Assembly: GCA_023248495.1 (NCBI GenBank)
Contig: JAHFEK010000008.1
Location: 1,920 to 65,919 of the forward strand
Direction of reading: 5' to 3'
DNA from: Nitrospinales bacterium
GTDB lineage: Bacteria; Nitrospinota_A; UBA7883; JACRGQ01
Length of the DNA: 64,000 nucleotides
In this document: piece after piece, positions 3,527 to 44,794 of the stretch
How the letters are laid out: the number at the start of each line of letters is the position of its first letter
Numbering within the stretch: position 1 is the first letter of the stretch
Notes under the pieces: model-generated
What the model was told of the DNA's origin: nothing
What the model saw: only the letters and a program-made list of their open reading frames with translations
Database searches by the model: none
Translations under genes and position numbers: made by a program

Positions 3527-5205
3527 TGCTCTTCGTGCGCGAGGGCGCGGGCGCCCATCCGGATCGGCAGAAACACCGCTGCCGCGGTGAGGCCGACAAC
3601 GATGGCGTAGCAGGCGTACACTTCCCAGCCCCCCACTTCCTGATTCAGGAATTTTTGGGAAAAGTGAACCCAGACTGGCCGTACGCCGAACATCACGATA
3701 ATGCCAAGATAGCCAAGTGCAAGGATCATGTAGTAAATCGCGCCGGTGGAGACGCCCACCTCGGCGATATTCTCGTGCTCGAATACCGGATAGAGCGCGC
3801 CCAGTCCGATGCCCAGCCCCGTCAGTCCCACCGTGATGAAGAAAATCCCCCCGGCGGAAATCGCCATGAGGAACGGGTCAACCTCGAGAAAAAGGTTGCT
3901 GACCACCACCAGCGTCTCCGCCAGCAGGAGCAGCGGCGCAAGGTAGAAAAAAAACTTTGTCCAGAGGTATTGCGAGAAATCGACCGGCGCGCATTTGATA
4001 ATCCAAAAGCTCCGCGCCTCGATCGAGGTGCTCGTGAAAACAAAGCGGACCGCGATGGCGGCCAGCACCACGCCGGCCAGTCCGATGTTCATCACCGATA
4101 CGAAGTTCTTGAGGAAAAGCGAATCCATCGGCAGCGAGCGGATGTTGAAGATGTAGACCGCAACCAGCGCGGAGAGCATGAATATCTGAGTCCACTGCGC
4201 CGGATCGCGCCAGAATACCCGGACATCCTTCATGATGATGGTCCGCAACGGCGGCGCGGCCCATGAAAGCACATTTTCCATACGGGGATAGAATCGGCTG
4301 GCGCGCCGTCCCCGCACCCCTTCGCGCCCGGTGTAGGCGATGGACCAGCCGCGGTAATACACGCGCGACACGCCGAAAAACACGGCCGCCAGCAACGCCG
4401 CGGCGGCGGCCCACGCGACGAGCGTCCAGAACCACATCTCGCCGAAATTGCCTTTGGTGCCCGCACCCAGCGCGGAGGCGAGCCACGTGCTCGGCAGCCA
4501 CGGGTAGGAGGGCGCCTTCAACCGCTCGACGTACATCTGTATTTCGGCCATCGGAATTTTTTTGCCCAGGAATTTTTCCGGCTGCATGAACCGGAAGAAC
4601 ATGACGAGGCTTCCCATGAAAATCAGCCCGATGATGGAAAGGAACTGATAAGTTTTGCGTGCGGGAAACCATCGCATCAGCAGCATCGTGACCGCCGTGC
4701 CTATCGCCGCCGGAATCAGGATAAACGGCATCATCGCCAGCAACATCAGGGGATAGTAAGGGGCCGGCGCGTTATGGCATTCCCCCAGCGCCACGAAAAT
4801 CGGCAGGCCGAAAACAAACAGCATCCACGAACTGTTGATGGTGGTCTGCTGAAAGCGTTGGGCGAATATCGGCCGCATTCCGATGGGAGAGGCGATCAGG
4901 AGGTCGAGATCTTTGGAAAGATAAAAGGTGCTGATGGCGGCGATGATATTGGAGAAGGTCAACATGGAGAAAAAGGTAAGGCAAATCACCATGAGGAACT
5001 GCGGGATAAGAATGTCGGCCAACTCCAGCGGCAGCGTGAGGATGTAGTCGATCACCCGGCGGAAGAAGAGGTAGTCTCCGGCGATGAATGCGATTGCCAG
5101 CAGCGTGAGCAGGATCATCCCGTTGCGCTGGTGGCGCGTGGCGCGGGTAATGCTATTCCACAAGACGCGCCGCCGGACGCCGCTGAGCAAAAGATAGCCC
5201 CTCAT
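3523..5205 (-). CDS. Large polytopic membrane protein (ABC-2-type permease-like, no cognate ATPase nearby)
   Basis: Long, very hydrophobic ORF with many predicted TM segments. Start moved from 5310 to ATG 5205 (MRGYLLL) so it no longer overlaps the upstream gene. The family call is tentative. Confidence 0.55.
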   Translation of the reverse strand: MRGYLLLSGVRRRVLWNSITRATRHQRNGMILLTLLAIAFIAGDYLFFRRVIDYILTLPLELADILIPQFLMVICLTFFSMLTFSNIIAAISTFYLSKDLDLLIASPIGMRPIFAQRFQQTTINSSWMLFVFGLPIFVALGECHNAPAPYYPLMLLAMMPFILIPAAIGTAVTMLLMRWFPARKTYQFLSIIGLIFMGSLVMFFRFMQPEKFLGKKIPMAEIQMYVERLKAPSYPWLPSTWLASALGAGTKGNFGEMWFWTLVAWAAAAALLAAVFFGVSRVYYRGWSIAYTGREGVRGRRASRFYPRMENVLSWAAPPLRTIIMKDVRVFWRDPAQWTQIFMLSALVAVYIFNIRSLPMDSLFLKNFVSVMNIGLAGVVLAAIAVRFVFTSTSIEARSFWIIKCAPVDFSQYLWTKFFFYLAPLLLLAETLVVVSNLFLEVDPFLMAISAGGIFFITVGLTGLGIGLGALYPVFEHENIAEVGVSTGAIYYMILALGYLGIIVMFGVRPVWVHFSQKFLNQEVGGWEVYACYAIVVGLTAAAVFLPIRMGARALAHEEH

Positions 5206-7117: not shown

Positions 7118-9391
7118 TTAGGGAGTGGCTCCCGTGTTGACGGGGGCCGTGGTATCAGCGGACCATTCAGTCCACGATCCGTCGTAATTGCTGACGTTGT
7201 ACCCCATATACCGGAAGATGAAGTAATGGAGGGACGACCGCCAGCCGACCCAGCAATGGGTGATGATCGTTTTGCCCGCGGTTATGCCGTTCGCGGCCAT
7301 GACATTCTCAAGGGTGGTGTAATCCCGCGTCGACACGTCGGTGGCGGAGACATACCCCACTCCCTTTTTCGCGGTGAGGGCCACGCCGGTCACATCGCCG
7401 GCGGCGCCGATCGACGTAACGGAAACGATGGCCGCGTGATTGCCCCCGCCCACCATCAGGAGATTGCCGACGGTATAACCCGTGCCGCCTGCATTGACCG
7501 AAACGGCCGTCAACGCGCCGCCGGAGGTGGTCACCGTGGAAGTGCCCGCAACGATGGCCGAAGCGGTGGTATTAAGGGTGCATCCGGTGCCTGCGGTTAT
7601 GCCTGACGTGGGCAGAACCAGATTGGGCGAGGCCGGCTGCAGGAAATGGCCGGTGAGGATGTTGACGGCTTTGGGGATATGCCCGCCGATATAGGTGCTG
7701 CTGGTCGTGTAGTTATCGTATTCACGGGAATCGACGATGGAGTAATTCGTCGTGTCGGCATAACTGGCCAGCACGTATGACTTGATAGCCAACTTAATGC
7801 TTTCCACCGTTGAAGTGAACGTCGTGGCGGTCTTGGTGTTTGCGGTCGTCTGGGCCGTATTCGGCACCGCAGTCCATGCGGTATATCCGCCGTCGAGGAT
7901 GTGGACGTTCTTGGCGCCGAGGTATTCCAGAATCCAGAAAAGCCGCGCGGCGTAGGTGTCGACGGTGTCGCCGTAGATCAGTATTTCGCTGCCGTGGGAA
8001 ATGCCGGCCGCGCCAAGTTTGTACGCAACCGTGGCGGCATCCTCCTCCAGCATGGTGGTTATCCCGGAGGTGTTGTATTCATCGAAGGTGTCCCCCGGCA
8101 AACTGATGGCGCCGGTAATGTGGCCGGCCGTGTATTTCGCCAGGGTTCTCGCATCGACGATCACCAAAGTGCTGTCGGTGGAATGCGTGGTCAAATCCGT
8201 TGTCGACCACAGCAGGCCGGTATTGTATTTCGCCGGGATTACGGAAACCTCGCTGGATATCGCGCTTTCGCCATTGGAATTAACCGCGGTGACGATAAAG
8301 TAGTAAATCGTTCCATTCGTCAGGCCGGTTATGGTCTTGCTTGTGCCGGTTATGCCGGTGACCTTGGTGGTTGCCGAGGTGGTGACGCCGGCGGCGGTGC
8401 CGTAGTAGATATTATAGGTTGATGCCCCGGTGGCGGCCGGCCAACCGAGAGTCACCTGTCCGTTTCCGCCGGTCGTCGCTATACCAGCCGGCTTGCTTGC
8501 GATGGCCGTGGTGGGCAACGAAGTATCCGCGGCCCATTCGGCCCAGGAGCCATCGTAATTGCTTACGTTGAATCCCATCAGCCTGAGCATGAAATATCCT
8601 TGCCCGGACATATAGCCAACGTAGCAGTGGGTTATGGCCGTTTTGCCGGCGGTAACTCCCTTGGCATCCAGCAATGTTTTGATGTCCGCATAGGACTTTG
8701 TGGTGCCGTCCGTATTCAGGTAATCGGTTTCCAGGATGTTGACGGCATTGGGGATGTGCGCCGCGCTGAAATCGGCGGCAAACCGCGAATCAACGATCGC
8801 GTAGTTGGTTGTATCGGAGTAATGCGCCAGGACATCGGCCTTGGTGGCGATCTTGGTGGTATCCACGGTGGCCGTAAACGTCGTCGCCGCTGGCGTGTTC
8901 GCGGTGGTCTGCGGAGTATTGGCCGTTATCGCCGTCCATGCGGGGTATCCGCCATCAAGGACATGGACATCCTTTGCGCCCATGTATTCCAGCGCCCAGA
9001 ATACCCTTTCCGGGCCGCCGAAATCGCTGCTGGGATTGCCCGCCCCATACACAATGATGGTTGCCGTGTTGGAAACACCGGCGGCGCCTAGAACGGCGGG
9101 CGCCCCGGTGGGAGCGGTGTTGAGCACGGTCGAGGATGAAGTGGTGTCGAGCGACGAGGGGGACAAATGGATGGCGCCGGTAATATGGCCGGCGGCATAA
9201 AGGGCCGCGCTTCTGGTATCGATAATCACCTGGTTCGACGCGCTAACATTCAGCGATGCGGCGCTCACAAGCAGGCTGGATGTCGCTTTCGGGTAGGTTG
9301 TGGCAACGGTGGAGGTCGTGCTGCTGCCGCATGCGGCGAGGACAAGCATCCCGGCAAAAAATAAAATCGGAACCCCAAATAACTTCTTCAT
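7118..9391 (-). CDS. Secreted lipoprotein with two tandem-rhodanese (sulfurtransferase) modules separated by an FN3 domain
   Basis: Lipobox MKKLFGVPILFFAGMLVLAAC. Start set at ATG 9391. Two catalytic-type loops are present: THCYVGYMSGQ and THCWVGWRSSL, each followed by SNYDGSW(A/T)EW. The FN3 segment is GNGQVTLGWPAATGASTYNIYYG...GLTNGTIYYFIVTAVNSNGES. The fourth rhodanese domain carries a Gly/Thr-rich insertion. Confidence 0.8.
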   Translation of the reverse strand: MKKLFGVPILFFAGMLVLAACGSSTTSTVATTYPKATSSLLVSAASLNVSASNQVIIDTRSAALYAAGHITGAIHLSPSSLDTTSSSTVLNTAPTGAPAVLGAAGVSNTATIIVYGAGNPSSDFGGPERVFWALEYMGAKDVHVLDGGYPAWTAITANTPQTTANTPAATTFTATVDTTKIATKADVLAHYSDTTNYAIVDSRFAADFSAAHIPNAVNILETDYLNTDGTTKSYADIKTLLDAKGVTAGKTAITHCYVGYMSGQGYFMLRLMGFNVSNYDGSWAEWAADTSLPTTAIASKPAGIATTGGNGQVTLGWPAATGASTYNIYYGTAAGVTTSATTKVTGITGTSKTITGLTNGTIYYFIVTAVNSNGESAISSEVSVIPAKYNTGLLWSTTDLTTHSTDSTLVIVDARTLAKYTAGHITGAISLPGDTFDEYNTSGITTMLEEDAATVAYKLGAAGISHGSEILIYGDTVDTYAARLFWILEYLGAKNVHILDGGYTAWTAVPNTAQTTANTKTATTFTSTVESIKLAIKSYVLASYADTTNYSIVDSREYDNYTTSSTYIGGHIPKAVNILTGHFLQPASPNLVLPTSGITAGTGCTLNTTASAIVAGTSTVTTSGGALTAVSVNAGGTGYTVGNLLMVGGGNHAAIVSVTSIGAAGDVTGVALTAKKGVGYVSATDVSTRDYTTLENVMAANGITAGKTIITHCWVGWRSSLHYFIFRYMGYNVSNYDGSWTEWSADTTAPVNTGATP

Positions 9392-31722: not shown

Positions 31723-31774
31723 AAAAAATGGAGCCGGTGCGGGGAATTGAACCCCGGGCCTACTGATTACGAAT
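31723..31774. repeat. 52-bp direct repeat (att, left): displaced 3' part of tRNA-Thr
   Basis: AAAAAATGGAGCCGGTGCGGGGAATTGAACCCCGGGCCTACTGATTACGAAT is identical to 39318..39369. Confidence 0.85.
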
Positions 31775-31904
31775 TATACCGCCATTGCATTTCCAAGCTT
31801 TTCCCAAAGGGGAGCCAATTAGCTATTCATTGACATAACCGCATGGTTACAGGGTATAATCCATGTATAAAGTTAGCGGGTTGTAGATGCTCTTTGATTC
31901 TTGC

Positions 31905-31934
31905 GGGGAACCATAGGGGAACCACGGGGAACCA
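31905..31934 (+). promoter_or_regulatory. Three direct GGGGAACCA repeats (10-11-nt phasing) upstream of int: candidate arm-type integrase sites
   Basis: Copies at 31905, 31916 and 31926. The 24-mer TTGCGGGGAACCATAGGGGAACCA recurs at 39256..39279. Confidence 0.45.
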
Positions 31935-31954
31935 GCTTGGGGGACTGAAATTAC

Positions 31955-33211
31955 ATGGCCGCGAAAAAAGAACACGAGTCGACCACGAAATTAAAAATCA
32001 CCAAGGACACGATTGATAAAAAATGCCCGTACACAGAGCGCGGGCGAGTGATCTACCGGGACACCGAGAAGCCCGGCTTCGGCTTACGGGTGGGAACAAA
32101 TATAAAAGCCTTCTTTGTTCAAAAAAAGATCGCGGGCAAGAAGGTGTTTTACACCCTTGGCATTTACCCGCAAATGACCCCCGATGACGCGCGGAAGCAA
32201 GCGGATATAAAACTGGGAGAAATGGCTAAGGGAACAAACCCTTTCGACAAGAAGCGGGAGGAAAAGGCCCATAAAACCACGCTTGAGGAAGTGTATCGTG
32301 ATTACTTGGAATCCAATTCCAACCTCAAGCCAAAGACCATCTATGACTATACCCGGTGTATTGAGCTTGCCTTCAAGGACTGGAAGCGTAAACCCATCAC
32401 TGAAATCACCAAGGACATGGTGGAGCGGCGGCACAAAAAGTTAGGAGATGAGCGCGGCGCGGCTTACGCGAACCTGTCTATGAGGGTATTGCGGGCATTG
32501 TTTAATTACGCGCAAAGCAAATATGAAACCGGCAAGGGGGAGGCCCTGATTCGTGATAACCCCGTGCGGCGGCTCTCACAGGTTAAGGCATGGTTTAAGA
32601 TAAACAGGCGGGATGATTACATCAAATCTGATAGCCTTCCCGACTTCTTCAAGGTGTTGGACGGCATTGTAAACGATACTTTGCGGGACTACTTCACGTT
32701 GATACTTTTCACCGGACTTCGGCGGGAAGAGGCCGCCCGGATGAAGTGGGGAGACGTGGATTTAAAGAATAAGACTTTCACCATAACCGAAACCAAGAAC
32801 CGTGAAAAACTTGTACTTCCTATCACGGCGCACCTTATGGAGATGTTTGGACGGCGCAAACAAACGGCGGGGAATGGTGAGTGGGTATTCCCCGGCAACG
32901 GGAAAGATGGACATATCACCGAGCCGAAATATCAGATCAACAAGATGCGTGAAGGTATCGGCTCTCATATCACCGTTCATGGCTTGCGGCGCACCTATGC
33001 CACGATTGCCGAATCTTTGGATATTTCACAGTACACCTTGAAACGACTTCTTAATCACAAGCAGGGATCGGATGTTACCGGCGGCTATGTCGTTTCTGAT
33101 CCCGAACGGCTAAGGCAGGCCGCCGAAATGATAGCGGCTCAAATTCTCTTGAAGGGCGGGAGAAGGGAAACCGGGAAGGTTATTCAAATGCCCCAAGGGA
33201 AAAGGGCATAA
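31955..33211 (+). CDS. int: Tyrosine recombinase/integrase (P4-type, N-terminal arm-binding domain)
   Basis: N-terminus YRDTEKPGFGLRVG...FYTLGIYPQMTPDDARKQA. Catalytic region FTGLRREEAARMKW...HGLRRTYATIA...LLNHK...GGY. Confidence 0.9.
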   Translation: MAAKKEHESTTKLKITKDTIDKKCPYTERGRVIYRDTEKPGFGLRVGTNIKAFFVQKKIAGKKVFYTLGIYPQMTPDDARKQADIKLGEMAKGTNPFDKKREEKAHKTTLEEVYRDYLESNSNLKPKTIYDYTRCIELAFKDWKRKPITEITKDMVERRHKKLGDERGAAYANLSMRVLRALFNYAQSKYETGKGEALIRDNPVRRLSQVKAWFKINRRDDYIKSDSLPDFFKVLDGIVNDTLRDYFTLILFTGLRREEAARMKWGDVDLKNKTFTITETKNREKLVLPITAHLMEMFGRRKQTAGNGEWVFPGNGKDGHITEPKYQINKMREGIGSHITVHGLRRTYATIAESLDISQYTLKRLLNHKQGSDVTGGYVVSDPERLRQAAEMIAAQILLKGGRRETGKVIQMPQGKRA

Positions 33212-33222
33212 AGGGGGAGCGG

Positions 33223-33771
33223 ATGAAAAGTAAAGAAAAAACGAAAAAGGCCGGAGTGCTTGTTACCGCCACGGTGGAGCGGCAAATATTCATGGTGCGC
33301 GGGCAAGCGGTGATGATGGATACGCACCTTGCGGAACTGTACGAAGTGGAAACGCGGTCATTGATTCAGGCTGTAACCCGCAATGCGGAACGGTTCCCCG
33401 CTGATTTTATGTTTCAGTTAAATAACAATGAGCATGAATCTTTGAGATCACAATTTGTGATGTCAAAGAAATCCGGGAGGGGTGGACGGCGGACATTGCC
33501 CTACGTTTTCACGGAGCAGGGGGTGGCGATGCTATCCAGCGTATTGCGAAGCGATAGGGCAATAAAGGTGAACATTGAAATAATGCGCGCCTTTATCAAA
33601 ATGCGCGATGTGCTGGCCGGGCATAAGGAACTTGCCCGCAAAGTGGATGAGCATGAACACCGCTTGAACGATCAGGATGAAGTGATTATTTCCATCGTGG
33701 AAGAAATGCGTAAACAGCGGACGGCTCTACCGCCCACCAAACCAAAACGGAAAATTGGATTCAGCAAATAG
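33223..33771 (+). CDS. ORF6N (KilA-N-related) domain DNA-binding protein
   Basis: IFMVRGQAVMMDTHLAELYEVETRSLIQAVTRNAERFPADFMFQL...PYVFTEQGVAMLSSVLRSDRAIKVNIEIMRAF is a characteristic ORF6N pattern. Confidence 0.8.
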   Translation: MKSKEKTKKAGVLVTATVERQIFMVRGQAVMMDTHLAELYEVETRSLIQAVTRNAERFPADFMFQLNNNEHESLRSQFVMSKKSGRGGRRTLPYVFTEQGVAMLSSVLRSDRAIKVNIEIMRAFIKMRDVLAGHKELARKVDEHEHRLNDQDEVIISIVEEMRKQRTALPPTKPKRKIGFSK

Positions 33772-33863
33772 TAAACGTGCCGGGCTAGGGTAGCTCCCGA
33801 ACGGCGGAAATCCTTGCCGCTTGCCCGGTGCAAAATATCAAGGAGCGCACAAGGAGGCGCGAA

Positions 33864-34859
33864 ATGGGAATCAATAAGACAGCCTATCTGAAATACCCTT
33901 CTTTTACTCTTCTTGAAACCGCGTACATCCTTTGCGGGAAAGACATCCCCGATAAATGCAGGGAGCAAGAGGCCCCGGCGGATGTCAATGCTGTTGTTTT
34001 AGGGTGGAGAAAATATCTTGTGTTTTATGAATATGCTTTCATTGAAATCGCAATGAAGAAACTGATGATTGATAAAAACCATCCAGAATTGGAAGAGATT
34101 TTTGCGAAGAAAAGACCAGAGAATGGTGTAGGTGCGGGAATTATGGGGGAAGTGGAGTGGAGAGAGAGTTTGGATTCCCTTTATAGGGTAGTAGACCGCC
34201 CTCTCGCCAAAGCATTTTTAATCCACTATCACGGTGCATGTCTGAGTCAAGAACTTGCAATAAAGGACAAATATGGGTGTTTGGATTTAGTAGATTTTGA
34301 TTTGAAGGTCTACGCAAGCCTTAAAAAAAAGGAGCAAAAAATTGACGCCCCCACCGCGCCATTCAACAAAGCAACACGGGAAGAATATTTTAAAGAGTTC
34401 CGCCTAGGGAATTATTTACGGACTAGTTTTAATGCCGAGTTGCCCGGCTCCATTTATGAAGCTCAAAGAGATGAAGATGGGTACTTGGAATTTGTTGATC
34501 TCTTTTTACGTCATGCGGAAATCCCCGGTAATGCTTTGAAAAGTATTATGAAGGAATTTCATCATTCAGGCTCTTTTATAGGAGCTGACTCCGCTGAAAT
34601 GTATGTCTATGAATCATCGACCGAGACGGAACCAAGAAGCGGTAGGCACCTTATAAACAACAGACGTCGCGAAAATGCCAAATTGGTAGCGTCTGCCTTT
34701 TGGGAAGCAAATCCGCAAATGACAATTGAAGACGTGATAAGAACAAACAGCATTAGCCGGGCTTGCGATAATGAAGCATACGGTGAACAAGTTATCAGGG
34801 GATGGATTAAAGACCTTTGTCCAAACCGCAAGCCGGGCCGCCGTCCCCAAAAGAAATAA
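33864..34859 (+). CDS. Hypothetical protein (331 aa), visibly AT-richer cargo gene
   Basis: ATG 33864 is preceded by an AGGAGG SD. No domain recognised. Composition is clearly AT-richer than the flanking element genes. Confidence 0.6.
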   Translation: MGINKTAYLKYPSFTLLETAYILCGKDIPDKCREQEAPADVNAVVLGWRKYLVFYEYAFIEIAMKKLMIDKNHPELEEIFAKKRPENGVGAGIMGEVEWRESLDSLYRVVDRPLAKAFLIHYHGACLSQELAIKDKYGCLDLVDFDLKVYASLKKKEQKIDAPTAPFNKATREEYFKEFRLGNYLRTSFNAELPGSIYEAQRDEDGYLEFVDLFLRHAEIPGNALKSIMKEFHHSGSFIGADSAEMYVYESSTETEPRSGRHLINNRRRENAKLVASAFWEANPQMTIEDVIRTNSISRACDNEAYGEQVIRGWIKDLCPNRKPGRRPQKK

Positions 34860-34981
34860 ACCCCCTCCTCACCCAAGAAAACTGTTTTCTTGCCTGAGAC
34901 GGGAATTTTGTTCCCGTTTTTCATGTTTTACCTTGACGGAAAGATTGGCAATAACGCCGAACAAAACCGAAAGGGCAGACA

Positions 34982-35200
34982 ATGAAAACAGCACTAGAAA
35001 ACGATCCCAAATTACCCCCTGAACAAGCGGCGGCGGAAATAGGCCGTCAACCTTCCACGTTGGCAAAATGGCGCGTTACCGGCGGCGGCCCTAAATTTAT
35101 CAAGAGCGGCGGGCGCATTCTGTATAGACGTTCTGATCTCGAAGCGTGGATGAATTCCCGAACATTCAATACAACTTCCGAATTCCACGGGGGCAAGTGA
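34982..35200 (+). CDS. AlpA/excisionase-type helix-turn-helix protein
   Basis: 72 aa. AAAEIGRQPSTLAKWRVTGGGPKFIKSGGRILYRRSDLEAWM is typical of AlpA/Xis (MerR-like HTH) proteins. Confidence 0.7.
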   Translation: MKTALENDPKLPPEQAAAEIGRQPSTLAKWRVTGGGPKFIKSGGRILYRRSDLEAWMNSRTFNTTSEFHGGK

Positions 35201-35273
35201 TGAACGCGGGCAAACGCGCCCCCGGCCTCTTGGCGGATGATCGGGGGATTAAGGAAATCAGGGAGGCCGGAAA

Positions 35274-35441
35274 ATGAGGAAGCACTTACCGGCCTTTAGG
35301 ATGATCGACAACCGGAGTATAGCACGATCCGCCCGCCGTGCCGCCGGTTATGCCGCTCAAAACAACCGGCCCCTCTTCTTGCGGGCATTGGCCGCCTACC
35401 GCCGCGCGGGCTGCCTTCTTCAGAGAAGGGGGAGCCGATGA
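35274..35441 (+). CDS. Possible 55-aa basic protein translationally coupled to rep
   Basis: ATG 35274. The stop overlaps the rep ATG (ATGA at 35438). Below the ORF-track cutoff; no homology recognised. Confidence 0.25.
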   Translation: MRKHLPAFRMIDNRSIARSARRAAGYAAQNNRPLFLRALAAYRRAGCLLQRRGSR

Positions 35442-36892
35442 ACACCGCCGCCGCCGTACAAAATAGCCCTCTTGCCGAAGCGGAAATATCCGTTTTAGGA
35501 GGGGTGCTTTTCGAGGGGGATAAGCCGCTCCCAAATGCGGCCCTTGTCACGGCGCGGGAACACCTGACCAACGGGGAAGAGTTTTCCATCCCCCGGCACC
35601 GGATGATTTACGCGGCCATGATTCACCTTGCGGATCGTGGGGAGCCTATCGGCTTTGGCACCTTGTCCGCCGAAATACAAAAACGCGGCGGCGATGGGCG
35701 CGGGGAATTAAATTACCTTGTGGGGATCATGGAGGCCATACCCACCAGCGCAATGGTGGAGCCGTGCGCCCGCATCGTGAAAGAGGCGTATCAAAAACAG
35801 CGACTTGAAAACGCGCTTGTCGATGCGCGGGCGAACCTGAAAAATGGCGCGGAACGTGGCGCGGTGATTGCCGACCTGATCCCCTGCTTGCAGGAAATGG
35901 GGGAAGACGCGGAGCGAGCGGACAAAAAGAAGCGAAGCCTTGATAAGGTGATTCTGAATTGGCCGCAAGTTTTAAAGACCGAAATCCCGCCACTGGTAAT
36001 GATTCTTGCTTGGCTGAAAGCGGGATGCCTTGCGATGGTGTACGCGCCGCGTGGACTTGGGAAAACCTTTTTCGGCCTCTCCCTTGCGGTATGTATTGCG
36101 TGCGGTAAACCGTTTATGCGCTGGCCCGTACTGAATCCGTGCGGGGTGCTCTACATTGATGGGGAAATGCCACTGGCCGACCTACGGGAAAGATTAAGCG
36201 GTTTTATGGTTGCCCCCCCAACGGCTCCGCTCCTGACGCTCTCCCATGAAATTTTTTATCAAGAAGCGGATCGGGACTTGAATATCACCGATGATGGAAT
36301 CCAAAAAGCGATCCTTTCGTACCTTGACGAAAATCCTTTAATCCGCGTCCTGATTATAGACAACCTTTCGGCCCTGACCCGAATCCGGGAAGACAAGGGT
36401 GATGATTGGCGGGAATCGTTTTTCCCTTTCATCATGGCGTGTCGGCGGCGGCGCGTGGCCGTCCTGCTGGTACACCACGCCGGAAAGAATGGAGATCAGC
36501 GCGGCACCGGGGCGCGGGAAGACGCGCTGGATATAACCCTCAAACTGTCAAAGGCGGATGAAGACTACAAGGACGGCGCATATTTTCGCGTGGACTTTAC
36601 GAAGGCGCGGGGGGTGTATGGCGATACCGTCAAACCATTCACGGCCAAACTGGTAAAGGGGGCGGATGGGTTTTTCACTTGGACGCTCAAAGACGTGGAG
36701 GAAGACACGGAAAGCCGCCTTGTGAAGCTGATTGAAGAGACCGGCGGGATCAGCGTTACCGATGCGGCGGAAGAAATCGGCGTTACAAAATCCACAATCT
36801 CCAAAATGAAAAAGCGGCTTATAGATGCGGGTGCCATCAAAAAGACTTCGCCGGGTGCCCACACCCTTATGGAATTGGCGGGGGGATTATGA
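35438..36892 (+). CDS. Replication protein: DnaB-like N-terminal domain fused to RecA/AAA (RepA-like) ATPase
   Basis: The N-terminus (AEISVLGGVLFEG...IPRHRMIYAAM) is DnaB-N-like. Walker A is YAPRGLGKTFF and Walker B LIIDNLSAL. The C-terminus has an HTH (ISVTDAAEEIGVTKSTISKM). Confidence 0.75.
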   Translation: MNTAAAVQNSPLAEAEISVLGGVLFEGDKPLPNAALVTAREHLTNGEEFSIPRHRMIYAAMIHLADRGEPIGFGTLSAEIQKRGGDGRGELNYLVGIMEAIPTSAMVEPCARIVKEAYQKQRLENALVDARANLKNGAERGAVIADLIPCLQEMGEDAERADKKKRSLDKVILNWPQVLKTEIPPLVMILAWLKAGCLAMVYAPRGLGKTFFGLSLAVCIACGKPFMRWPVLNPCGVLYIDGEMPLADLRERLSGFMVAPPTAPLLTLSHEIFYQEADRDLNITDDGIQKAILSYLDENPLIRVLIIDNLSALTRIREDKGDDWRESFFPFIMACRRRRVAVLLVHHAGKNGDQRGTGAREDALDITLKLSKADEDYKDGAYFRVDFTKARGVYGDTVKPFTAKLVKGADGFFTWTLKDVEEDTESRLVKLIEETGGISVTDAAEEIGVTKSTISKMKKRLIDAGAIKKTSPGAHTLMELAGGL

Positions 36893-37102
36893 AAGTTTCC
36901 CAATTGTTTCCTCAAAGGTTTCCATACACCCCCGAAAGTTTCCTGTTTTTCTTGTGCAACGTTGCCCATGCGGAAATGGAAACTTTCACCGCTTCACCCT
37001 TGCAAACAAAGGGGATAATTGTTTCCAGCACAGGAAACTTTCAGGCCAAAGTTTCCACCCCCGGAAACAATTTGTTTCCTGATTGTTTCCCTGAAAGTTT
37101 CC
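36891..37102. repeat. Iteron cluster: at least 11 copies of GTTTCC-core motifs in both orientations (GAAAGTTTCC and TTGTTTCC types); candidate origin of replication
   Basis: Copies read at 36891, 36904, 36914, 36934, 36978(rc), 37019, 37033(rc), 37048, 37062(rc), 37072, 37083 and 37093. The cluster lies immediately 3' of the rep gene. Confidence 0.6.
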
Positions 37103-37115
37103 ACGGGGGGATGAT

Positions 37116-37718
37116 ATGAAGTGCCCCGGATGCGAAGCATATGTAAACCCGGCATGGGATAGATGCCACGCTTGCGGCGGCGCATTGAAGGGCGCGGCGT
37201 TTATTGAGACCGTGAAGCCGGACACCCCCGGCCCGGCACCGGAAGCCGACTTCCAGCGCGTGACCGACAGGCACCGGAACCGGGCGGCGCGGCTGACCCC
37301 TGACGGAACCGGGGAACTGATAGCCAAAGCATGGCCGGGACTTCATCGGCGGATCGTAGCGGCTGACGCGGAGCTTAACCGGCTATGGCTTGCGGCCCGC
37401 CGGGGGAATCAGCCATACCCCCAAACCTTCCCGGCGTTCGTGGCCGCTTGCCGGACGTGGACGCAGTTGAACCTACAGGCCGCCCGGTATGTCCGCTACC
37501 TCGACCGGGGGATCAGGCGTATCTACAGCCGCAAGGTGGACGGCTGGATTTATCTTGTGCGCGACAAGGCCTCCGTGCGTGGTGTGCGGCTCCGGCCCGC
37601 TGGGGTGGTGTATAGCCTCAAAGAGTGCGCCGCCTTGGTGGATGTGAACCCCAGCGCGGATGAACTGCGAATGCTACACAGGGCAAAGATGATGTTTCAG
37701 GGGGAGCTTTCCGCCTGA
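37116..37718 (+). CDS. Hypothetical protein with N-terminal zinc-ribbon (CPGC...CHAC)
   Basis: 200-aa ORF beginning MKCPGCEAYVNPAWDRCHACGG. Confidence 0.5.
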   Translation: MKCPGCEAYVNPAWDRCHACGGALKGAAFIETVKPDTPGPAPEADFQRVTDRHRNRAARLTPDGTGELIAKAWPGLHRRIVAADAELNRLWLAARRGNQPYPQTFPAFVAACRTWTQLNLQAARYVRYLDRGIRRIYSRKVDGWIYLVRDKASVRGVRLRPAGVVYSLKECAALVDVNPSADELRMLHRAKMMFQGELSA

Positions 37719-37749
37719 TATTTGCAGGAAATTTACAGGAGATTAATGC

Positions 37750-38175
37750 ATGGCGAAATTCAAACGTGGAAAAAGCGGGAACCCAAAGGGAAAGCCCAAA
37801 GGTTCGCCGGATAAGCGCACAGCCTACCGGGAACTGTTAAGCGAACGCGCCCCGGAACTGGTGGACATACTTGTTAAAAACGCGCTTGAGGGGGACACGG
37901 CGGCGTTAAGAATCTGCATTGACCGGATCATCCCCCCGATGAGGGCGGTTGACGGCGCGGTATCGGTGGATGTTTCCGGCCCCACGCTTACGGCAAAGGG
38001 GGACGCGATTATCAAGGCGATGGGAGCCGGTACGCTTACGCCGGATCAGGCGGCGACATTGCTACAGGCAATTGGCGCACAGGCGCGGATTGTCGAAATA
38101 GACGAGTTGGAAAAACGGCTTTCAGCGTTGGAAGCCAAAAGCGAAAACAAATCATTGAAAGGGAAACGACCATGA
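37750..38175 (+). CDS. DUF5681-family protein (small-terminase-like)
   Basis: N-terminus FKRGKSGNPKGKPKGSPDKRT, typical of DUF5681 proteins encoded next to phage terminase genes. Confidence 0.6.
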   Translation: MAKFKRGKSGNPKGKPKGSPDKRTAYRELLSERAPELVDILVKNALEGDTAALRICIDRIIPPMRAVDGAVSVDVSGPTLTAKGDAIIKAMGAGTLTPDQAATLLQAIGAQARIVEIDELEKRLSALEAKSENKSLKGKRP

Positions 38176-38363
38176 GTAACATTGAAAAACGCATTACAAA
38201 GCTTGAAGGCACTCGTACCGACCAAAAAAAGCTTGAGGAATATATAAAGTTTCTGAATGACGTAAGAGGTGACGATAAACCGCCCTTAACATTGGCGGAC
38301 TTTCCCGAAGATTACGAAATACCCAGCCATGAGGAAGCCTTAGAAGAACTGGAAAGGAATTGA
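38172..38363 (+). CDS. Small coiled-coil protein (paralog 1)
   Basis: 63 aa, MSNIEKRITKLEG... The start overlaps the upstream stop. Confidence 0.45.
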   Translation: MSNIEKRITKLEGTRTDQKKLEEYIKFLNDVRGDDKPPLTLADFPEDYEIPSHEEALEELERN

Positions 38364-38557
38364 CTATGAGCGGAATTGAAAAACGGATTGAAAAGCTGGA
38401 AGAGAAAACCGAAGATAAAAAAACGGATCTTTGGTGCGTGGAAGGTGAACCCGGCGAGAGTGCCGAAGATGCTGTAATCCGCGACTGCAAAGAGCGCGGA
38501 ATAAGCAGGGAGATTTTTGATAAAGGGATGCCGCTTGTTATCGTCATAGACAAATGA
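38360..38557 (+). CDS. Small coiled-coil protein (paralog 2)
   Basis: 65 aa, MTMSGIEKRIEKLEE... The start overlaps the upstream stop. It shares the IEKRIxKLE N-terminus with 38172..38363. Confidence 0.45.
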   Translation: MTMSGIEKRIEKLEEKTEDKKTDLWCVEGEPGESAEDAVIRDCKERGISREIFDKGMPLVIVIDK

Positions 38558-38826
38558 TGGAGGGAGGCGGCAACAAATCCCCGCACGGCGGCGTGGGCGG
38601 GAAAAAAACCCGGAAAAGAAAAAGGCCCATTACTCCAAGAGGGGTCTACTCTCATCCCCAAGGATAGTGGCGGAACGCCTCCCGCTCCGCACAATGGGCC
38701 AAAATCCTACTATCGAAAAAACGGGCGACGAGTGATTGCTGCGCCTGATTATCAATCTAAGACTGCGAACCAAACGGCCTACACTCAAACGTTCGAAACG
38801 CTCCGCCCTGATTCCACATAGAAAAA

Positions 38827-39189
38827 ATGTACATGTCCGGTTCAGGCGAACATATAGAACCCGGCGGCGCGGCCCCTGAACAGCATTCTCCACCTTCGTC
38901 ATCCGTAGAATCGCACGAAAAGGGAACGGAAGTCAAACCTACCTCGCCACCTTTTCCACATCCACCAGATTACAGGGAAATTATCCGCCCCGTTGACGGG
39001 CGCGGGGATGAAAAACCCGTGAATAAACCCAAAAAATGTTTTATGCCGCCAAGAATTGCGGAAAGAACATTTCATCCCCCAGTGATTTTTCAGCCAAAAC
39101 GCGCCCGCGAGAGAGTGGGTAAATGGGAAATATACGGGAAAAACCCCGCTAGCAGGGAATTTTCAGGGATGAAATGCGTTTCACCCTGA
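38827..39189 (+). CDS. Hypothetical Pro-rich protein
   Basis: 120-aa low-complexity ORF with no homology recognised. It may be non-coding. Confidence 0.2.
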   Translation: MYMSGSGEHIEPGGAAPEQHSPPSSSVESHEKGTEVKPTSPPFPHPPDYREIIRPVDGRGDEKPVNKPKKCFMPPRIAERTFHPPVIFQPKRARERVGKWEIYGKNPASREFSGMKCVSP

Positions 39190-39259
39190 ATTTATGCGGA
39201 TGGAATGAGACTTTATAACTTGGAAAGACGCGCGGGGGTGGATCATGACTTTCCCTTGC

Positions 39260-39279
39260 GGGGAACCATAGGGGAACCA
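39260..39279 (+). promoter_or_regulatory. Two direct GGGGAACCA repeats near the right end: candidate arm-type integrase sites
   Basis: Copies at 39260 and 39271, part of the 24-mer shared with 31901..31924. Confidence 0.4.
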
Positions 39280-39317
39280 TTATTTTTAGGGGTTGAGACA
39301 GGCCATGTACATATTTG

Positions 39318-39369
39318 AAAAAATGGAGCCGGTGCGGGGAATTGAACCCCGGGCCTACTGATTACGAAT
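39318..39369. repeat. 52-bp direct repeat (att, right), overlapping the 3' part of tRNA-Thr
   Basis: Identical to 31723..31774. Confidence 0.85.
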
Positions 39370-39398
39370 CAGTTGCTCTACCCCTGAGCTACACCGGC
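39324..39398 (-). tRNA. tRNA-Thr (anticodon CGU), CCA encoded
   Basis: Manual fold. Acceptor GCCGGTG/CACCGGC, D arm GCTC-AGGGGTA-GAGC, anticodon arm ACTGA-TTCGTAA-TCAGT, T arm CGGGG-TTCAATT-CCCCG, discriminator T, then CCA. Confidence 0.9.
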
Positions 39399-41771: not shown

Positions 41772-41795
41772 CCCGCGCCCTCTCGAAGGGGCGGG

Positions 41796-42431
41796 TTAAT
41801 CCTTCGCGGCGGTTTCCAGAGCTTTCAAGAGCGCTTCGGGCGGCTGGGCTCCCTTCACCATATACTTCCTGTTGATGATAAAACAGGGGACGGCGTTGAC
41901 GCCCAGTTCGCGCCCTTCCGCCTCGTCGTCCCGCACTTCCTTGGAATAGCCGCCGCCATCCAACAGTGTGGCCGTTTCATTCGGTGGAATGCCGATCTCC
42001 CCCGCCAGTTCCGCCAGAACCGCCCTGTCGCCGATTTGTTTTCCTTCAACAAAATAGGCGGCAAAAAGCCGTTCTTCCGCCTTGTCCTGAGCGCCGTATT
42101 TGGCCGCCAGATGCACCAGGCGATGGGCGTTGAACGTGTTCGTGGGAGCCGTTCGGTCAAGGGCGAACGTAAGGCCCGCGCCGGCCGCCATGTCCGCCAC
42201 CTGCGCAGTGGCTTTCTTCGCCCATTCCACGGACTGACCGTATTTGGCCGCCAGCGACTCGTGGATGGAAACCCCCGGCTTAAATATCGCGCCCGGATCC
42301 AGCTCGAAACTTTTCCAAGTAATAGTTACTCGATCCTTGTGCGCGAACCGGCCAAGGGCGGTCTCAAAGGTGCGTTTGCCTATGTAGCAAAACGGGCAGA
42401 CCAAGTCCGACCATATTTCAACGGTAATCAT
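41796..42431 (-). CDS. DsbA-family oxidoreductase (FrnE-like)
   Basis: ITVEIWSDLVCPFCYIGK N-terminal motif. 211 aa. Confidence 0.8.
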   Translation of the reverse strand: MITVEIWSDLVCPFCYIGKRTFETALGRFAHKDRVTITWKSFELDPGAIFKPGVSIHESLAAKYGQSVEWAKKATAQVADMAAGAGLTFALDRTAPTNTFNAHRLVHLAAKYGAQDKAEERLFAAYFVEGKQIGDRAVLAELAGEIGIPPNETATLLDGGGYSKEVRDDEAEGRELGVNAVPCFIINRKYMVKGAQPPEALLKALETAAKD

Positions 42432-42505
42432 GTTTTCCCGGCATCTCCCATATGACCATTATTGAACGCCTTTTAAGGGTGCGGGCGGGCAGGCGGCGCA
42501 GCCTA

Positions 42506-42910
42506 CTATTTGATTTTTCTTTTTACAAACGCCACTGCTTTTTCGGCCTTGCCAATAGCTTCCTGCGCTTCGTCCAGCAGAATTTCCCGCCAATCGTCGG
42601 GGTATCTTTCCGTTACAGCGTAGGTAGTCATACCTTCCACCAGTGTAATCAGTTCGAGAAAAGCCTCATCAGACTTTCCGCAAAGTCTGACCAGTTTCGT
42701 CAAGTCATGGGTTTTTGGAAATTCTGTGCCCATTTCTACCAAAAAGGCTTTTAGGGATTTCTCAATTGCCTGTTGGGAGTGAAAGCATACGTCCTCGGTA
42801 ATGGGAGGGTTGGCCTGCAGGGACGCATGGCCGGCCCTTAGATCATTTTCCCCCTTTGTGAGCCAATGCTCGACAGCCGTTCGTTTTCTGTCAACCATAA
42901 CAAACGACAC
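42506..42910 (-). CDS. HEPN-domain protein (toxin of an HEPN/MNT pair)
   Basis: 134 aa. CFHSQQAIEKSLKAFL and a ...ERYP... context (Rx4-6H-type region). The start overlaps the upstream MNT gene. Confidence 0.7.
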   Translation of the reverse strand: MSFVMVDRKRTAVEHWLTKGENDLRAGHASLQANPPITEDVCFHSQQAIEKSLKAFLVEMGTEFPKTHDLTKLVRLCGKSDEAFLELITLVEGMTTYAVTERYPDDWREILLDEAQEAIGKAEKAVAFVKRKIK

Positions 42911-43196
42911 CCCTATGGCTTACTTCGTAGGCTAAAGTATTCACAACTTTTTTATAATCTTCAAGATGATCTGGCCGCATAACGAAAACATCCATGGAGA
43001 AATCACGGTCATTAAAAAGCCTGTCAATCTCCACCTCGATTTCACGTCTTGATTTCGGCCCCGAATAGACCACGACTAAATCAACGTCGCTTTCCTCGGT
43101 GGCCGTGCCTTTGGCGCGGGAGCCAAAAAGAATGATTTTGTCGGGGTGTATCGCCTCGGCAATTCTCCGCGTGATTTTTTCTACCAAAGCATCCAT
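42891..43196 (-). CDS. Nucleotidyltransferase-domain protein (MNT antitoxin)
   Basis: ILFGSRAKGTATEESDVDLVVV is the GSxxxG...DxD motif. Start set at ATG 43196. Confidence 0.7.
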   Translation of the reverse strand: MDALVEKITRRIAEAIHPDKIILFGSRAKGTATEESDVDLVVVYSGPKSRREIEVEIDRLFNDRDFSMDVFVMRPDHLEDYKKVVNTLAYEVSHRGVVCYG

Positions 43197-43305
43197 ACTT
43201 AAACTATATGGAAAGGCGGGCTTTATCGCAAGTCTAAATGGCACCCCGACAAATGCTACAGAGCAATATCTGATCCCGTCCCCCTTTTCCACTAGAGCGG
43301 CGTTA

Positions 43306-43836
43306 TCAGTATTCTTTAATTATCTGACTCCGCTTTGTCTTGTACTCTTCCGCTTTATGGCCTTTAGAGCCTTTGCTGCAATCATAAGTCCGCCCAGACA
43401 AGACCAATGCGGCCCCACCCGTTGCGGGGCTCCATACAATATGAGTACTGCCGTTATTTGCGGTCTGCCCAAGTGCATCTTCTTTCGCGTGTGCAACCAA
43501 ATTGCCCGAACTTGTACCAGCTACTAAGGCAATAAATTGGCAACCTGCAACCGCAGATTCATCAACTTCGACGACTTTGTTTGAAAACGTATATCCGTCA
43601 TTAGTGATGCCTTTATTAAAGTCCCAATTTTTACATTTATCGACCTAACCTCATCTTTGTTAATTGAAAAGATCCTCGCCTTCGTTTTGATGACGATAGA
43701 AGTGTTATCCATTCCAACAATGGCACCATTTAAGACAATCCCATCATCTAAAGTGACCGTATCGGCATAAGCATAATTAGATGATATGACTGATAGTCAG
43801 AAGAGACGCGCACACTGCCATGTAATAAGCTTTCAT
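43306..43836 (-). pseudogene. Secreted-protein gene disrupted by two frameshifts
   Basis: The signal peptide MKAYYMAVCASLLTISHII stops. The reading continues in a second frame (SNYAYADTVTLDDGIVLNG...EVRS), then in a third (DKCKNWDFNKG...KRSQIIKEY). The patch is AT-rich. Confidence 0.35.
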
Positions 43837-44049
43837 AATTCCCTCTACCGCAATCCTACACCTGTCGGTAGAATCTGCATATACCTCGAAAGGGTAAGAT
43901 TTTCACCTAATGGGCAACGGAACGCGGGAACGGGGCCAAATCTTGATTTGTAGCATTTGGCGGGATGCCATTCTCCGGCGGCGAAGAGAAAAAAAGGGGG
44001 GGCGTGAAATTGCTATTTTATGCCTTTCTTCGGCTTCGTGATTGGAACG

Positions 44050-44367
44050 TTATACCTGCATGCCAAGCGTTTCAACGCGCCGCACTTTAATTTTCACCTC
44101 TACCCGCGATCCGAGCCTATTGATAATCGACATGAGGCGATCGACGGTAAACCGTCCGAGGGCCGCATTGCGGATGCGGGAAAAGTCGGCCGCCGCAACC
44201 CCGGTGCGGCTTTGCGCACCGCGCACGGTCAAACCCTCCCGGTCGAGCGCTTTTATGATTTCGGCGGCCAAGATAGCTTTGAATTGTTCGATGTCCGCGT
44301 TCTCATGGCCTAGATCGCGGAAAACATTCCCACTTCCGCGAAATACTACCAACCCTTTACCTTTCAT
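44050..44367 (-). CDS. XRE-family HTH antitoxin
   Basis: 105 aa. LTVRGAQSRTGVAAADFSRIRNAALGRFTVDRLMSIINRLG. The start overlaps the toxin stop. Confidence 0.7.
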   Translation of the reverse strand: MKGKGLVVFRGSGNVFRDLGHENADIEQFKAILAAEIIKALDREGLTVRGAQSRTGVAAADFSRIRNAALGRFTVDRLMSIINRLGSRVEVKIKVRRVETLGMQV

Positions 44368-44711
44368 GGCAACATCTCCTTCAGTTGTTTCAATCTGTCC
44401 TTAATCAAATCAATCTCATGTTTAGGAGTTTTAACCCCCTGTGCGGATTTCTTCTGGAACGCATGGACAACCCAAAGCTCTTCACCGATCTGCACCGCGT
44501 AGACCACCCGAAAAGCATTGCCCCGATATGGCAACGCAATTTCAAAGACTCCCGCACCGAGGCCCTTCATCGGCTTCGCCATATCCGCCTTGCCGCCTTC
44601 AGCGGCGATTGTCAGCGCCGCAAGGCATATCGACTGTGCCGTTTCCGGAAATCCCCTGAACTCCTTCAGCGCGGCCTTGATCCATGAAACGGGCCTAGTC
44701 GTTCTTGTCAT
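44364..44711 (-). CDS. RelE/ParE-superfamily toxin (phage Gp49-like)
   Basis: WIKAALKEFRGFP...GVFEIALPYRGNAFRVVYAVQIGEELWVVHAFQKKS. Start set at ATG 44711. Confidence 0.7.
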   Translation of the reverse strand: MTRTTRPVSWIKAALKEFRGFPETAQSICLAALTIAAEGGKADMAKPMKGLGAGVFEIALPYRGNAFRVVYAVQIGEELWVVHAFQKKSAQGVKTPKHEIDLIKDRLKQLKEMLP

Positions 44712-44794
44712 CCACCGCCATATATGGCATGTTGTCACATATGACAACATGCCGTCAACCTGATTTATGCAAAAACGGGGTAGGGTGATCCGGG

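Follow-up and report, generated by a model that had tools for sequence, protein, structure and literature searches.

A minimal tRNA-integrated replicon in a Nitrospinales genome, possibly a capsid-less phage satellite

How does a small island that integrates into a tRNA gene, carries its own replicase and encodes no virion move between cells? This question is raised by a 7.6-kb element in a Nitrospinales metagenome-assembled genome (MAG; G000, 2.57 Mb in 93 contigs, 87.7% complete), which we analysed within a 64-kb stretch, hereafter the window, of the 66.6-kb contig JAHFEK010000008.1. The host belongs to a small phylum (33 species genomes), probably Nitrospinota, and lies outside the usual hosts of satellites, as an earlier note on this DNA had suggested; the same note took the host to be GC-rich, which does not fit the 48–61% GC of the surrounding 24 kb. 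The element is almost certainly a discrete integrative replicon and is probably still mobile. On balance, we lean towards reading it as a capsid-less phage satellite in the style of PICIs (phage-inducible chromosomal islands), PICMIs (phage-inducible chromosomal minimalist islands) and the marine virion-encapsidated integrative mobile elements (VEIMEs). As such it would most likely travel inside the particles of another phage.

The element is bounded by perfect 52-nt direct repeats (Table 1), which comprise the 3' 46 nt of tRNA-Thr(CGT), from the anticodon loop to the end, and 6 nt downstream. Their 28-nt core occurs at two sites only in the window, those two, and at none in 100 shuffles. The right repeat lies in the sole tRNA gene of the window (Rfam, 73 bits). 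Since it is the 3' part of this gene, the left repeat is a partial tRNA left by integration. The integrase has an arm-DNA-binding domain, and the repeats of GGGGAACCA just inside both ends are therefore where arm-type sites are expected. Tyrosine-integrase recombination inserted the element into the segment of tRNA-Thr(CGT) that runs from the anticodon loop to the 3' end, and rebuilt the tRNA. Two genomes of the same genus bear on this site. In G007, homology with the window begins at 39317, one base before attR, and runs rightwards at 86%. In G008, another island, of 12.8 kb (L253, G008:C117, 184–13100), occupies the same tRNA-Thr and is bounded by a 96%-identical attL-like sequence. It encodes an integrase (44% identical to that of the window), an ORF6N protein whose gene overlaps the int stop, an XRE helix-turn-helix (HTH) protein and an int-alpA RNA; its cargo pairs are N6_N4_Mtase with ResIII (type III restriction-modification) and MNT with HepT (toxin-antitoxin), and it is devoid of a replicase. 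The presence of a different island with a related integrase at the same tRNA indicates that the site is a hot spot for related integrases with mosaic cargo. No empty attB could be demonstrated in the same-genus genomes: G000, G007 and G008 each have different DNA on the left side of the tRNA, and the left flank of G007 is not present in G000.

The credible genes of the element are all on the plus strand. The earlier note had described them as one unit; we recovered this architecture, in the order int, cargo, alpA-like gene, replicase, origin and DUF5681, and Pfam reproduced the gene calls of the note (P4 integrase, ORF6N, HTH, DnaB-N/AAA replicase, DUF5681). The note had also allowed for a fragment of a larger degraded prophage or of an integrative and conjugative element (ICE). 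The genes on the left flank are an AAA_14/DUF4143 ATPase and an IS21 stub, those on the right encode DUF507, PHP, AhpC/TSA and DsbA proteins, and searches for capsid, portal, tail, large-terminase, lysis and relaxase families gave no match in the element (Pfam, PHROG) or in the flanks. With such ordinary neighbours and no virion or conjugation families, the element does not belong to any larger prophage or ICE. It has arm-type sites at both ends, an AlpA/Xis-type HTH protein, and a replicase followed by a presumed iteron origin, and is free of virion, lysis and conjugation genes.

The replicase joins a DnaB N-domain to a RepA-like AAA_25 domain and a C-terminal winged HTH (wHTH). Many of its 764 homologs fuse AAA_25 to Toprim, PriCT or Prim-Pol primase domains, and in the clade of this replicase the DnaB N-domain stands where relatives have the primase domain. 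The DnaB N-domain is the DnaG-binding part of DnaB, and we infer that the element borrows the primase of its host. Close homologs (60–81% identity) sit on contigs of 4–10 kb; the nearest relatives among named genomes are in Nitrospinota MAGs (around 51–52%), and a metagenome scan with the replicase profile returned nothing above 50% identity. Directly after the replicase gene, as noted before, lies a field of iterons with 12 GTTTCC/GGAAAC hexamers, against about 0.2 expected from the window background. We searched for similar fields in the 400 nt 3' of the gene at the 136 replicase-homolog loci with enough downstream sequence. A repeated hexamer exceeded the locus's own 95th percentile in 98 of them, with at least seven copies in 94, and the iteron cores are related across the family (GGAAAC, GTAAAC, GGGACA, GTTGCA). 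Because the succession of replicase and iterons is family-wide, the field in the window is very probably the origin of the element. We discarded as a gene candidate an open reading frame (ORF) of 76 codons that spans the iterons (36889–37119) with ATGA overlaps at both ends. It matches no family, its translated similarity to L017 reflects the shared GTTTCC repeats, and it is probably a by-product of these repeats. Another possible ORF, of 55 aa, lies between the HTH_17 gene and the replicase gene.

The other gene of particular interest encodes a DUF5681 protein. With a profile of this family built from 29 relatives (A2), we detected DUF5681 at 14 of the 240 loci that have a replicase homolog, a set with many truncated members. 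The DUF5681 gene lies 3' of the replicase and on the same strand in all but three of these 14. The islands concerned include those of Halomonas (at tRNA-Ser), Vreelandella (tmRNA), a Desulfovibrionaceae MAG (tRNA-Ala), a Rhizobiaceae MAG (tRNA-Glu) and Geminicoccus. Among the strains with related islands, Halomonas organivorans CECT 5995 and Vreelandella olivaria TC10 can be cultured. The order int, alpA, replicase or primase, DUF5681, small ORFs and tRNA recurs in several proteobacterial lineages (L054, L060, L078, L053, L080). Among the 33 species genomes of the host phylum, DUF5681 was found in G000 and G031 only. In the latter (G031:C93), int and HTH_17 come first, followed by a DnaG-type Zn-ribbon and a DUF3987 primase; behind some small ORFs lies DUF5681, then an ORF of 169 aa, and the contig ends in a partial tRNA. 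Judged by its genes, this island adds DUF5681 to the int-alpA-primase core published for satellites (PMC10803314). On a viral contig of IMG/VR (L165), DUF5681 follows int, an SF2 helicase, a Toprim primase and an ORF of 150 aa. Across these elements the replication genes are swapped and DUF5681 remains constant at the tRNA-proximal end.

It is gene position that supports a small-terminase (TerS) role for DUF5681. The profile matched 80 contigs of IMG/VR, and in 64 of them a large ORF starts at most 700 nt 3' of the DUF5681-like ORF, often overlapping its stop codon. Among these 64 large ORFs, 46 match Terminase_6N and 40 match Terminase_3. In one contig (L172, 7893–8375), the ORF that overlaps a Pfam-verified large terminase (TerL) is 38% identical to the DUF5681 protein of the window over 99 residues (BLASTP, E 7e-22). 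In the Kosakonia phage Kc259, a DUF5681 homolog stands two genes before TerL and portal. In the AlphaFold2 (AF2) model of DUF5681 (predicted local distance difference test, pLDDT, 79), the basic arm SGNPKGKPKG is disordered and the helices form a bundle of three and a long hairpin, a layout that is compatible with small terminases as they are generally known.

The DUF5681 gene also has regular companions. Full-length DUF5681 proteins end in a helix of the form ...ELE[KR]R[IL]xxLE, and the ORFs that start within 400 nt 3' of them begin with a similar motif, [KRQ][RKQ][ILVM]xx[LIVMA][EK]. This pairing of DUF5681 with a KRLxxLE ORF is a new observation. Such a motif-bearing 3' ORF is present in 13 of the 22 full-length DUF5681 loci, which are not fully independent, against 0.59 expected (1% background). 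These loci span several phyla, islands and plasmids alike. The two small paralogs of the element start with MSNIEKRITKLE and MTMSGIEKRIEKLE, and other loci have MTALERRLTKLEE, MVRLTRRLKILEE and MTPIERRLAKLE. On the IMG/VR contig L171, the motif-bearing ORF is itself a large terminase, with the start MSSALLKRIELLEE and a Walker A motif; phmmer matched it to other ORFs in TerL position, including Pfam-verified TerLs, with E values from 4.6e-12 to 1.1e-28. Its N-terminal helix, KRIELLE, is of the same kind as those of the small ORFs in the window. We infer that the KRLxxLE helix is a docking element between small and large terminases. A bolder proposal, which we think unlikely as a whole, is that DUF5681 and the small ORFs form an unrecognised terminase-hijacking module of a large undescribed class of satellites, integrated as well as plasmid-borne. 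In that case ELEKRLxxLE would dock on the KRLxxLE of the cognate TerL, and the proteins of 60–170 aa would copy the TerL N-terminus, either blocking the helper TerS or bridging the satellite TerS to the helper motor. The analogue that we invoke is Ppi of the Staphylococcus aureus pathogenicity islands (SaPIs), which interferes with helper packaging.

If the element is a satellite, its genes suggest the following cycle. The operon led by alpA would be switched on by some trigger, presumably a helper phage that infects the cell, and Int and the AlpA-like protein would excise the circle. The wHTH of the replicase would bind the GTTTCC iterons, the protein would melt the origin, and the DnaB-type N-domain would recruit DnaG of the host. 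The DUF5681 protein, with its basic SGNPxGKPKG arm, would serve as a small-terminase-like subunit that passes the DNA of the element to the TerL of the helper and thus into helper capsids. The two small KRIxKLE proteins would probably dock on the same terminase interface or compete for it. The left module (ORF6N/PDC-S05 protein, int-alpA RNA and 331-aa protein) would be cargo or regulation.

Satellites with the same gene logic have been published as PICIs (model in PMC10085698), PICMIs (PMC10803314) and VEIMEs (PMC9618062), and an int-alpA-primase core is a published satellite signature (PMC10085698, PMC10803314). Like the PICIs EcCICFT073 and PmCI172 (PMC10085698), the element is flanked by att sites and has an integrase, an AlpA-type regulator, a replicase gene with an iteron field behind it as presumed origin, next to the replication module a small gene putatively related to packaging, and accessory genes between int and regulation; tail, holin, portal and head-tail connector genes are absent from the element and its flanks. 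It differs from them in being about half the usual size and in its host, outside Proteobacteria and Firmicutes. Two of the five components of the PICI core, the integrase and the AlpA-type regulator, are present as such. The replicase component is represented by a functional analogue, the DnaB_N-AAA_25-wHTH protein with its iterons, which has no primase domain (Toprim, PriCT or Prim-Pol). The TerS component has a candidate in the putative TerS of the DUF5681 family, which takes the TerS position in phage contigs and belongs to no known TerS family. The fifth, the capsid-morphogenesis gene, is missing, so that strict membership of the PICIs does not follow. The logic of SatelliteFinder would probably place the element as Type C, at best as Type B.

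The PICMIs, with PICMI115 of Vibrionaceae as the example (PMC10803314), resemble the element in their minimal gene set, where alpA comes after int and an adjacent gene and precedes one small ORF and the replication protein, in their long non-coding stretches and in the lack of capsid-remodelling genes; the related island G031:C93 even has the PICMI-marker DUF3987 primase. However, PICMIs lie next to fis, have DUF3987/DUF5906 primases and no terS-like gene, whereas the element lies in tRNA-Thr, has a replicase that matches AAA_25 and DnaB_N only, and carries DUF5681 and the two small paralogs. VEIMEs (PMC9618062) and PICI-like tycheposons (10.1101/2020.12.28.424599) are similar in gene content: small islands with a tyrosine integrase, AlpA/excisionase, primase/helicase, sometimes TerS, and no capsid genes. 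They are defined by their recovery from virus particles or vesicles, whereas the element is known from genes. A lineage-specific tyrosine recombinase and a set of hallmark genes are further marks of tycheposons. Names in Nitrospin- are not present in the main text of the VEIME paper (PMC9618062). With P4, the element shares a P4-type integrase with an arm-binding domain, a tRNA 3'-end target, an AlpA-like gene and self-replication. It has no Pfam or PHROG match to the capsid-size genes of the psu-delta-sid operon or to the alpha primase-helicase by which P4-like satellites are defined (PMC10085698), and no epsilon. Held against these definitions, and against that of ICEs and integrative and mobilisable elements (IMEs; relaxase, coupling protein and type IV secretion system, T4SS), the element is none of PICMI, P4-like satellite or ICE/IME. 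We would describe it as a satellite-like island, minimal and capsid-less, whose replicase is of the DnaB_N-AAA_25-wHTH type and which carries a DUF5681/KRLxxLE module.

Several results weigh against a satellite. The earlier note had called the element PICI-like and its DUF5681 protein TerS-like; the architecture holds, the position 5' of TerL in viral contigs supports the second label, and the family and fold searches do not. The A2 profile gave no TerS link when searched against PDB sequences, a relaxed Pfam search of the 29 family members matched no TerS family, Foldseek and VIA-align on the AF2 model returned generic helical hairpins and no characterised TerS, and the PHROG families matched by DUF5681 are labelled 'unknown function'. 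The TerL-adjacent phage homologs mostly share the N-terminal two-thirds of the protein and then have acidic tails, not the KRLxxLE helix. A DUF5681 protein was also seen by mass spectrometry in an analysis of the structural proteome of a Salmonella phage (PMC8954984). In IMG/VR, the replicase and DUF5681 have no close relative: single-protein searches found none, profiles found distant ones only, and the best viral DUF5681 match is 44% identical. The helper prophage that the note proposed to look for was not found in the MAG, 87.7% complete as it is (no match to Phage_capsid, TerL_ATPase or Terminase_6N); the helper could possibly be lytic, as for PICMIs, and at this completeness the negative speaks neither for nor against a satellite. 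No capsid-morphogenesis or capsid-remodelling gene was matched in Pfam or PHROGs; an unrecognised analogue may lie among the orphan ORFs. Finally, the DUF5681 gene comes next after a primase-type gene on two small, circular, non-mobilisable plasmids with ParA, one from Shigella flexneri (NZ_CP055032.1, L354, 13.3 kb) and one from Waddlia chondrophila (pWc, NC_014226.1, L355, 15.6 kb). Both have primase, DUF5681 and small ORFs in this order, together with ParA and a tyrosine recombinase, with an annotation gap before DUF5681 in Shigella. A function in replication or maintenance would agree with this position as well; the plasmids may be plasmid-form members of the same family of hitchers. We also considered an 8.7-kb 'Bacteriophage sp.' record (MT836812.1; L163, 1–8660) as a packaged satellite and rejected it as a phage fragment with tail genes. 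This unverified scaffold from human faeces combines DUF5681 with tail assembly chaperone-like and tape-measure genes and a Mob_Pre plasmid relaxase, and is an odd mix or perhaps a chimeric assembly.

The plasmids, the want of a TerS family or fold, and the lack of a helper prophage in the MAG and of close relatives in viral contigs would all suit a phage-independent integrative replicon, in effect an integrated plasmid. Int and the AlpA-like protein would excise it, the replicase and iterons would keep the circle, and it would move by transformation, in vesicles or by mobilisation from an unrecognised oriT. DUF5681 and the KRLxxLE proteins would then bind DNA as an accessory module that serves replication, partition or regulation rather than packaging. 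We consider this the main rival account, possible but less likely than a satellite. Against it stand the very strong enrichment of DUF5681-like ORFs right 5' of TerL genes in phage contigs, often with an overlap, and the companion helix at the N-terminus of a bona fide TerL (L171). Genes for partition, a relaxase or a T4SS are absent from the element, and the int-alpA-primase core is a signature published for satellites (PMC10085698, PMC10803314). That the element has decayed from a larger prophage, or from an island that was once bigger, and is immobile now seems to us very unlikely. Its small size and the 760 nt without a convincing gene at its right end (38558–39317) would agree with decay, as would the G008 island at the same site without a replicase, and such elements do decay in this genome, since a 120-nt fossil of the Zn-ribbon/DUF5681 junction lies elsewhere in it. 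However, neither the 52-nt att repeats nor the 25-nt arm repeats contain a mismatch, every ORF is intact and coupled in translation, close relatives that share the rep, Zn-ribbon and DUF5681 genes occur in other samples at 60–91% protein identity, the flanks have no phage genes, and the same compact architecture recurs across phyla. Least probable of all, to the point of being hardly credible, is an IME that hitches on a conjugative element. In favour of this, the element is a small island in a tRNA gene and has replication genes of its own, and two DUF5681 relatives (L166, L167) adjoin giant polyvalent proteins of a kind found on conjugative elements and phages (that of L167 matches LPD38 and ddrB-ParB); yet no protein of the element matches a relaxase, coupling-protein or T4SS family, and each of its large ORFs encodes the integrase, the replicase or a protein that lacks relaxase motifs.

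If the element is indeed a capsid-less satellite, phage parasitism by minimal islands of this sort reaches a small and environmentally important phylum, probably the nitrite-oxidising Nitrospinota, for which we know of no described satellites. DUF5681, which one paper only mentions in the literature that we searched, would be a possible signature gene of a broad unnamed family present in Proteobacteria, on Chlamydiota plasmids and in this phylum. SatelliteFinder would probably give this family no more than a low-confidence Type C. The pairing of DUF5681 with KRLxxLE ORFs offers a testable handle on how such elements engage the helper terminase. Should the integrated-plasmid account hold, this module would identify a family of small integrative replicons.

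Table 1. Features of the element, in window coordinates.
Feature	Coordinates	Strand	Evidence
attL, partial tRNA-Thr copy	31723..31774	.	Same 52 nt as 39318-39369, direct, 100% identity
Arm-type repeats GGGGAACCA, 3 copies, just 5' of int	31900..31934	+	Period-10 tandem repeat
P4-type tyrosine integrase, 418 aa	31955..33211	+	Phage_integrase 2.6e-17; Arm-DNA-bind_3 3.4e-12; phrog_1 integrase 4e-57
ORF6N-domain protein, 182 aa	33223..33771	+	ORF6N 5.8e-33; PHROG anti-repressor 7e-27; PADLOC PDC-S05 4.9e-56
int-alpA RNA motif (Rfam RF02996), in 5' leader of 331-aa gene	33778..33843	+	40.5 bits
331-aa protein: orphan N-terminal 245 aa and widespread C-terminal helical domain of ~80 aa, end PGRRPQKK	33864..34859	+	
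Terminator-like hairpin, 11-pair stem then T-run, between int/cargo and alpA-rep modules	34896..34920	+	Consensus match
AlpA/Xis-type HTH_17 protein, 72 aa	34982..35200	+	HTH_17 (PF12728) 9.1e-09; phrog_66 'excisionase and transcriptional regulator' 3.1e-09
Replicase, 484 aa: DnaB N-domain, RepA-like AAA_25, C-terminal MarR-like wHTH	35438..36892	+	Pfam: DnaB N-domain 1.5e-16, AAA_25 5.7e-27, C-terminal wHTH 7.9e-08
Origin-like iteron field, 12 GTTTCC/GGAAAC hexamers, 208 bp	36895..37102	.	11-12 bp tandems and inverted pairs
200-aa protein with N-terminal Zn-ribbon, specific to element clade	37116..37718	+	No Pfam, PHROG or PADLOC match
DUF5681 protein, 141 aa, candidate small-terminase-like DNA-recognition protein	37750..38175	+	DUF5681 1.3e-11
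63-aa ORF, N-terminal IEKRITKLE helix	38172..38363	+	Start overlaps DUF5681 stop (ATGA)
65-aa paralog, N-terminal IEKRIEKLE helix	38360..38557	+	Direct repeats
Conserved non-coding block, closed by stem GGCCCATT/AATGGGCC, minus-strand U-run after it	38603..38710	.	DNA identity
Second arm-type repeat set GGGGAACCA, 2 copies, adjoining attR	39255..39279	+	Perfect 25-nt repeat of 31900-31924
attR (39318-39369) inside intact tRNA-Thr(CGT) gene (39324-39398)	39318..39398	-	Repeat and tRNA call; G007 homology begins 39317

The left module has counterparts in other islands. The ORF6N protein is probably cargo and matches the candidate defence family PDC-S05 of PADLOC. The genome has a second ORF6N/PDC-S05 gene (L257, G000:C11, 2853–3389), whose protein is 73% identical and which includes a 263-nt stretch of DNA at 91%. 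The match to the int-alpA RNA, a motif associated with int-alpA islands, is full-length (1–71) and scores above the gathering threshold of 35.8 bits. The same RNA lies 3' of int in three related islands (L005, 54.2 bits; L043, 41.8; and L253 of G008, 36.9), the integrases of which are the closest to that of the window (43–48% identity). Between G000 and G008 the RNA region is conserved at 86% in DNA, and the adjoining ORF6N proteins are 58% identical. The gene behind it starts at the ATG at 33864, after a strong Shine-Dalgarno sequence (AAGGAGG), which corrects an ORF call of 343 aa. Its 331-aa product matches no Pfam, PHROG or PADLOC family. Its C-terminal domain is found in 381 proteins with variable or unrelated N-termini, and is modelled by AF2 as four helices (pLDDT 83); a fold search with this domain gave weak, non-significant hits, mostly to HTH transcription regulators. 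Our guess is that the protein may be a sensor-regulator, with a conserved DNA-binding end on a variable body.

The right module begins with the Zn-ribbon protein, which has six relatives only (62–76% identity) and is specific to the clade of the element. The DUF5681 relatives of this element in other samples are 74–91% identical, and several close relatives with rep, DUF5681 and Zn-ribbon genes are on contigs of matching size (3,956, 5,322, 5,912 and 4,164 nt). The two small paralogs are translationally coupled and match no Pfam family. Within the non-coding right end, the conserved block shares 94% identity, over 100 nt, with a sequence on a 3.1-kb contig of another genus (L256, G014:C63, 2567–2666). 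This is the one other genome of the family that has it, and the block has no exact match in viral contigs. Its folding z-scores are weak (−1.9 and −1.0); it could be a small RNA, a pac site or a site flanking att. The fossil mentioned above (L255, G000:C81, 3855–3972) lies in an intergenic gap and is 90% identical to 37686–37805 of the window. It takes in the end of the Zn-ribbon gene, the ATTTRCAGGA repeats between the two genes and codons 1–19 of DUF5681, and appears to be what is left of a related element that was there earlier.

Comparison with G007 showed other variation to the right of the element. The 3 kb at 41776–44794 of the window are missing from G007, where the flanks lie 5 nt apart (the match on L254 ends at 8297 and resumes at 8303), which confirms this segment as a variable islet. 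The same G007 contig (L254, G007:C38) has two short sequences, of about 100 nt (4225–4328) and 60 nt (4944–5007), that match some 25 and 9 places in G000, respectively. With identities of 80–97% across the contigs of G000, these appear to be dispersed repeats of the genus, resembling miniature inverted-repeat transposable elements.

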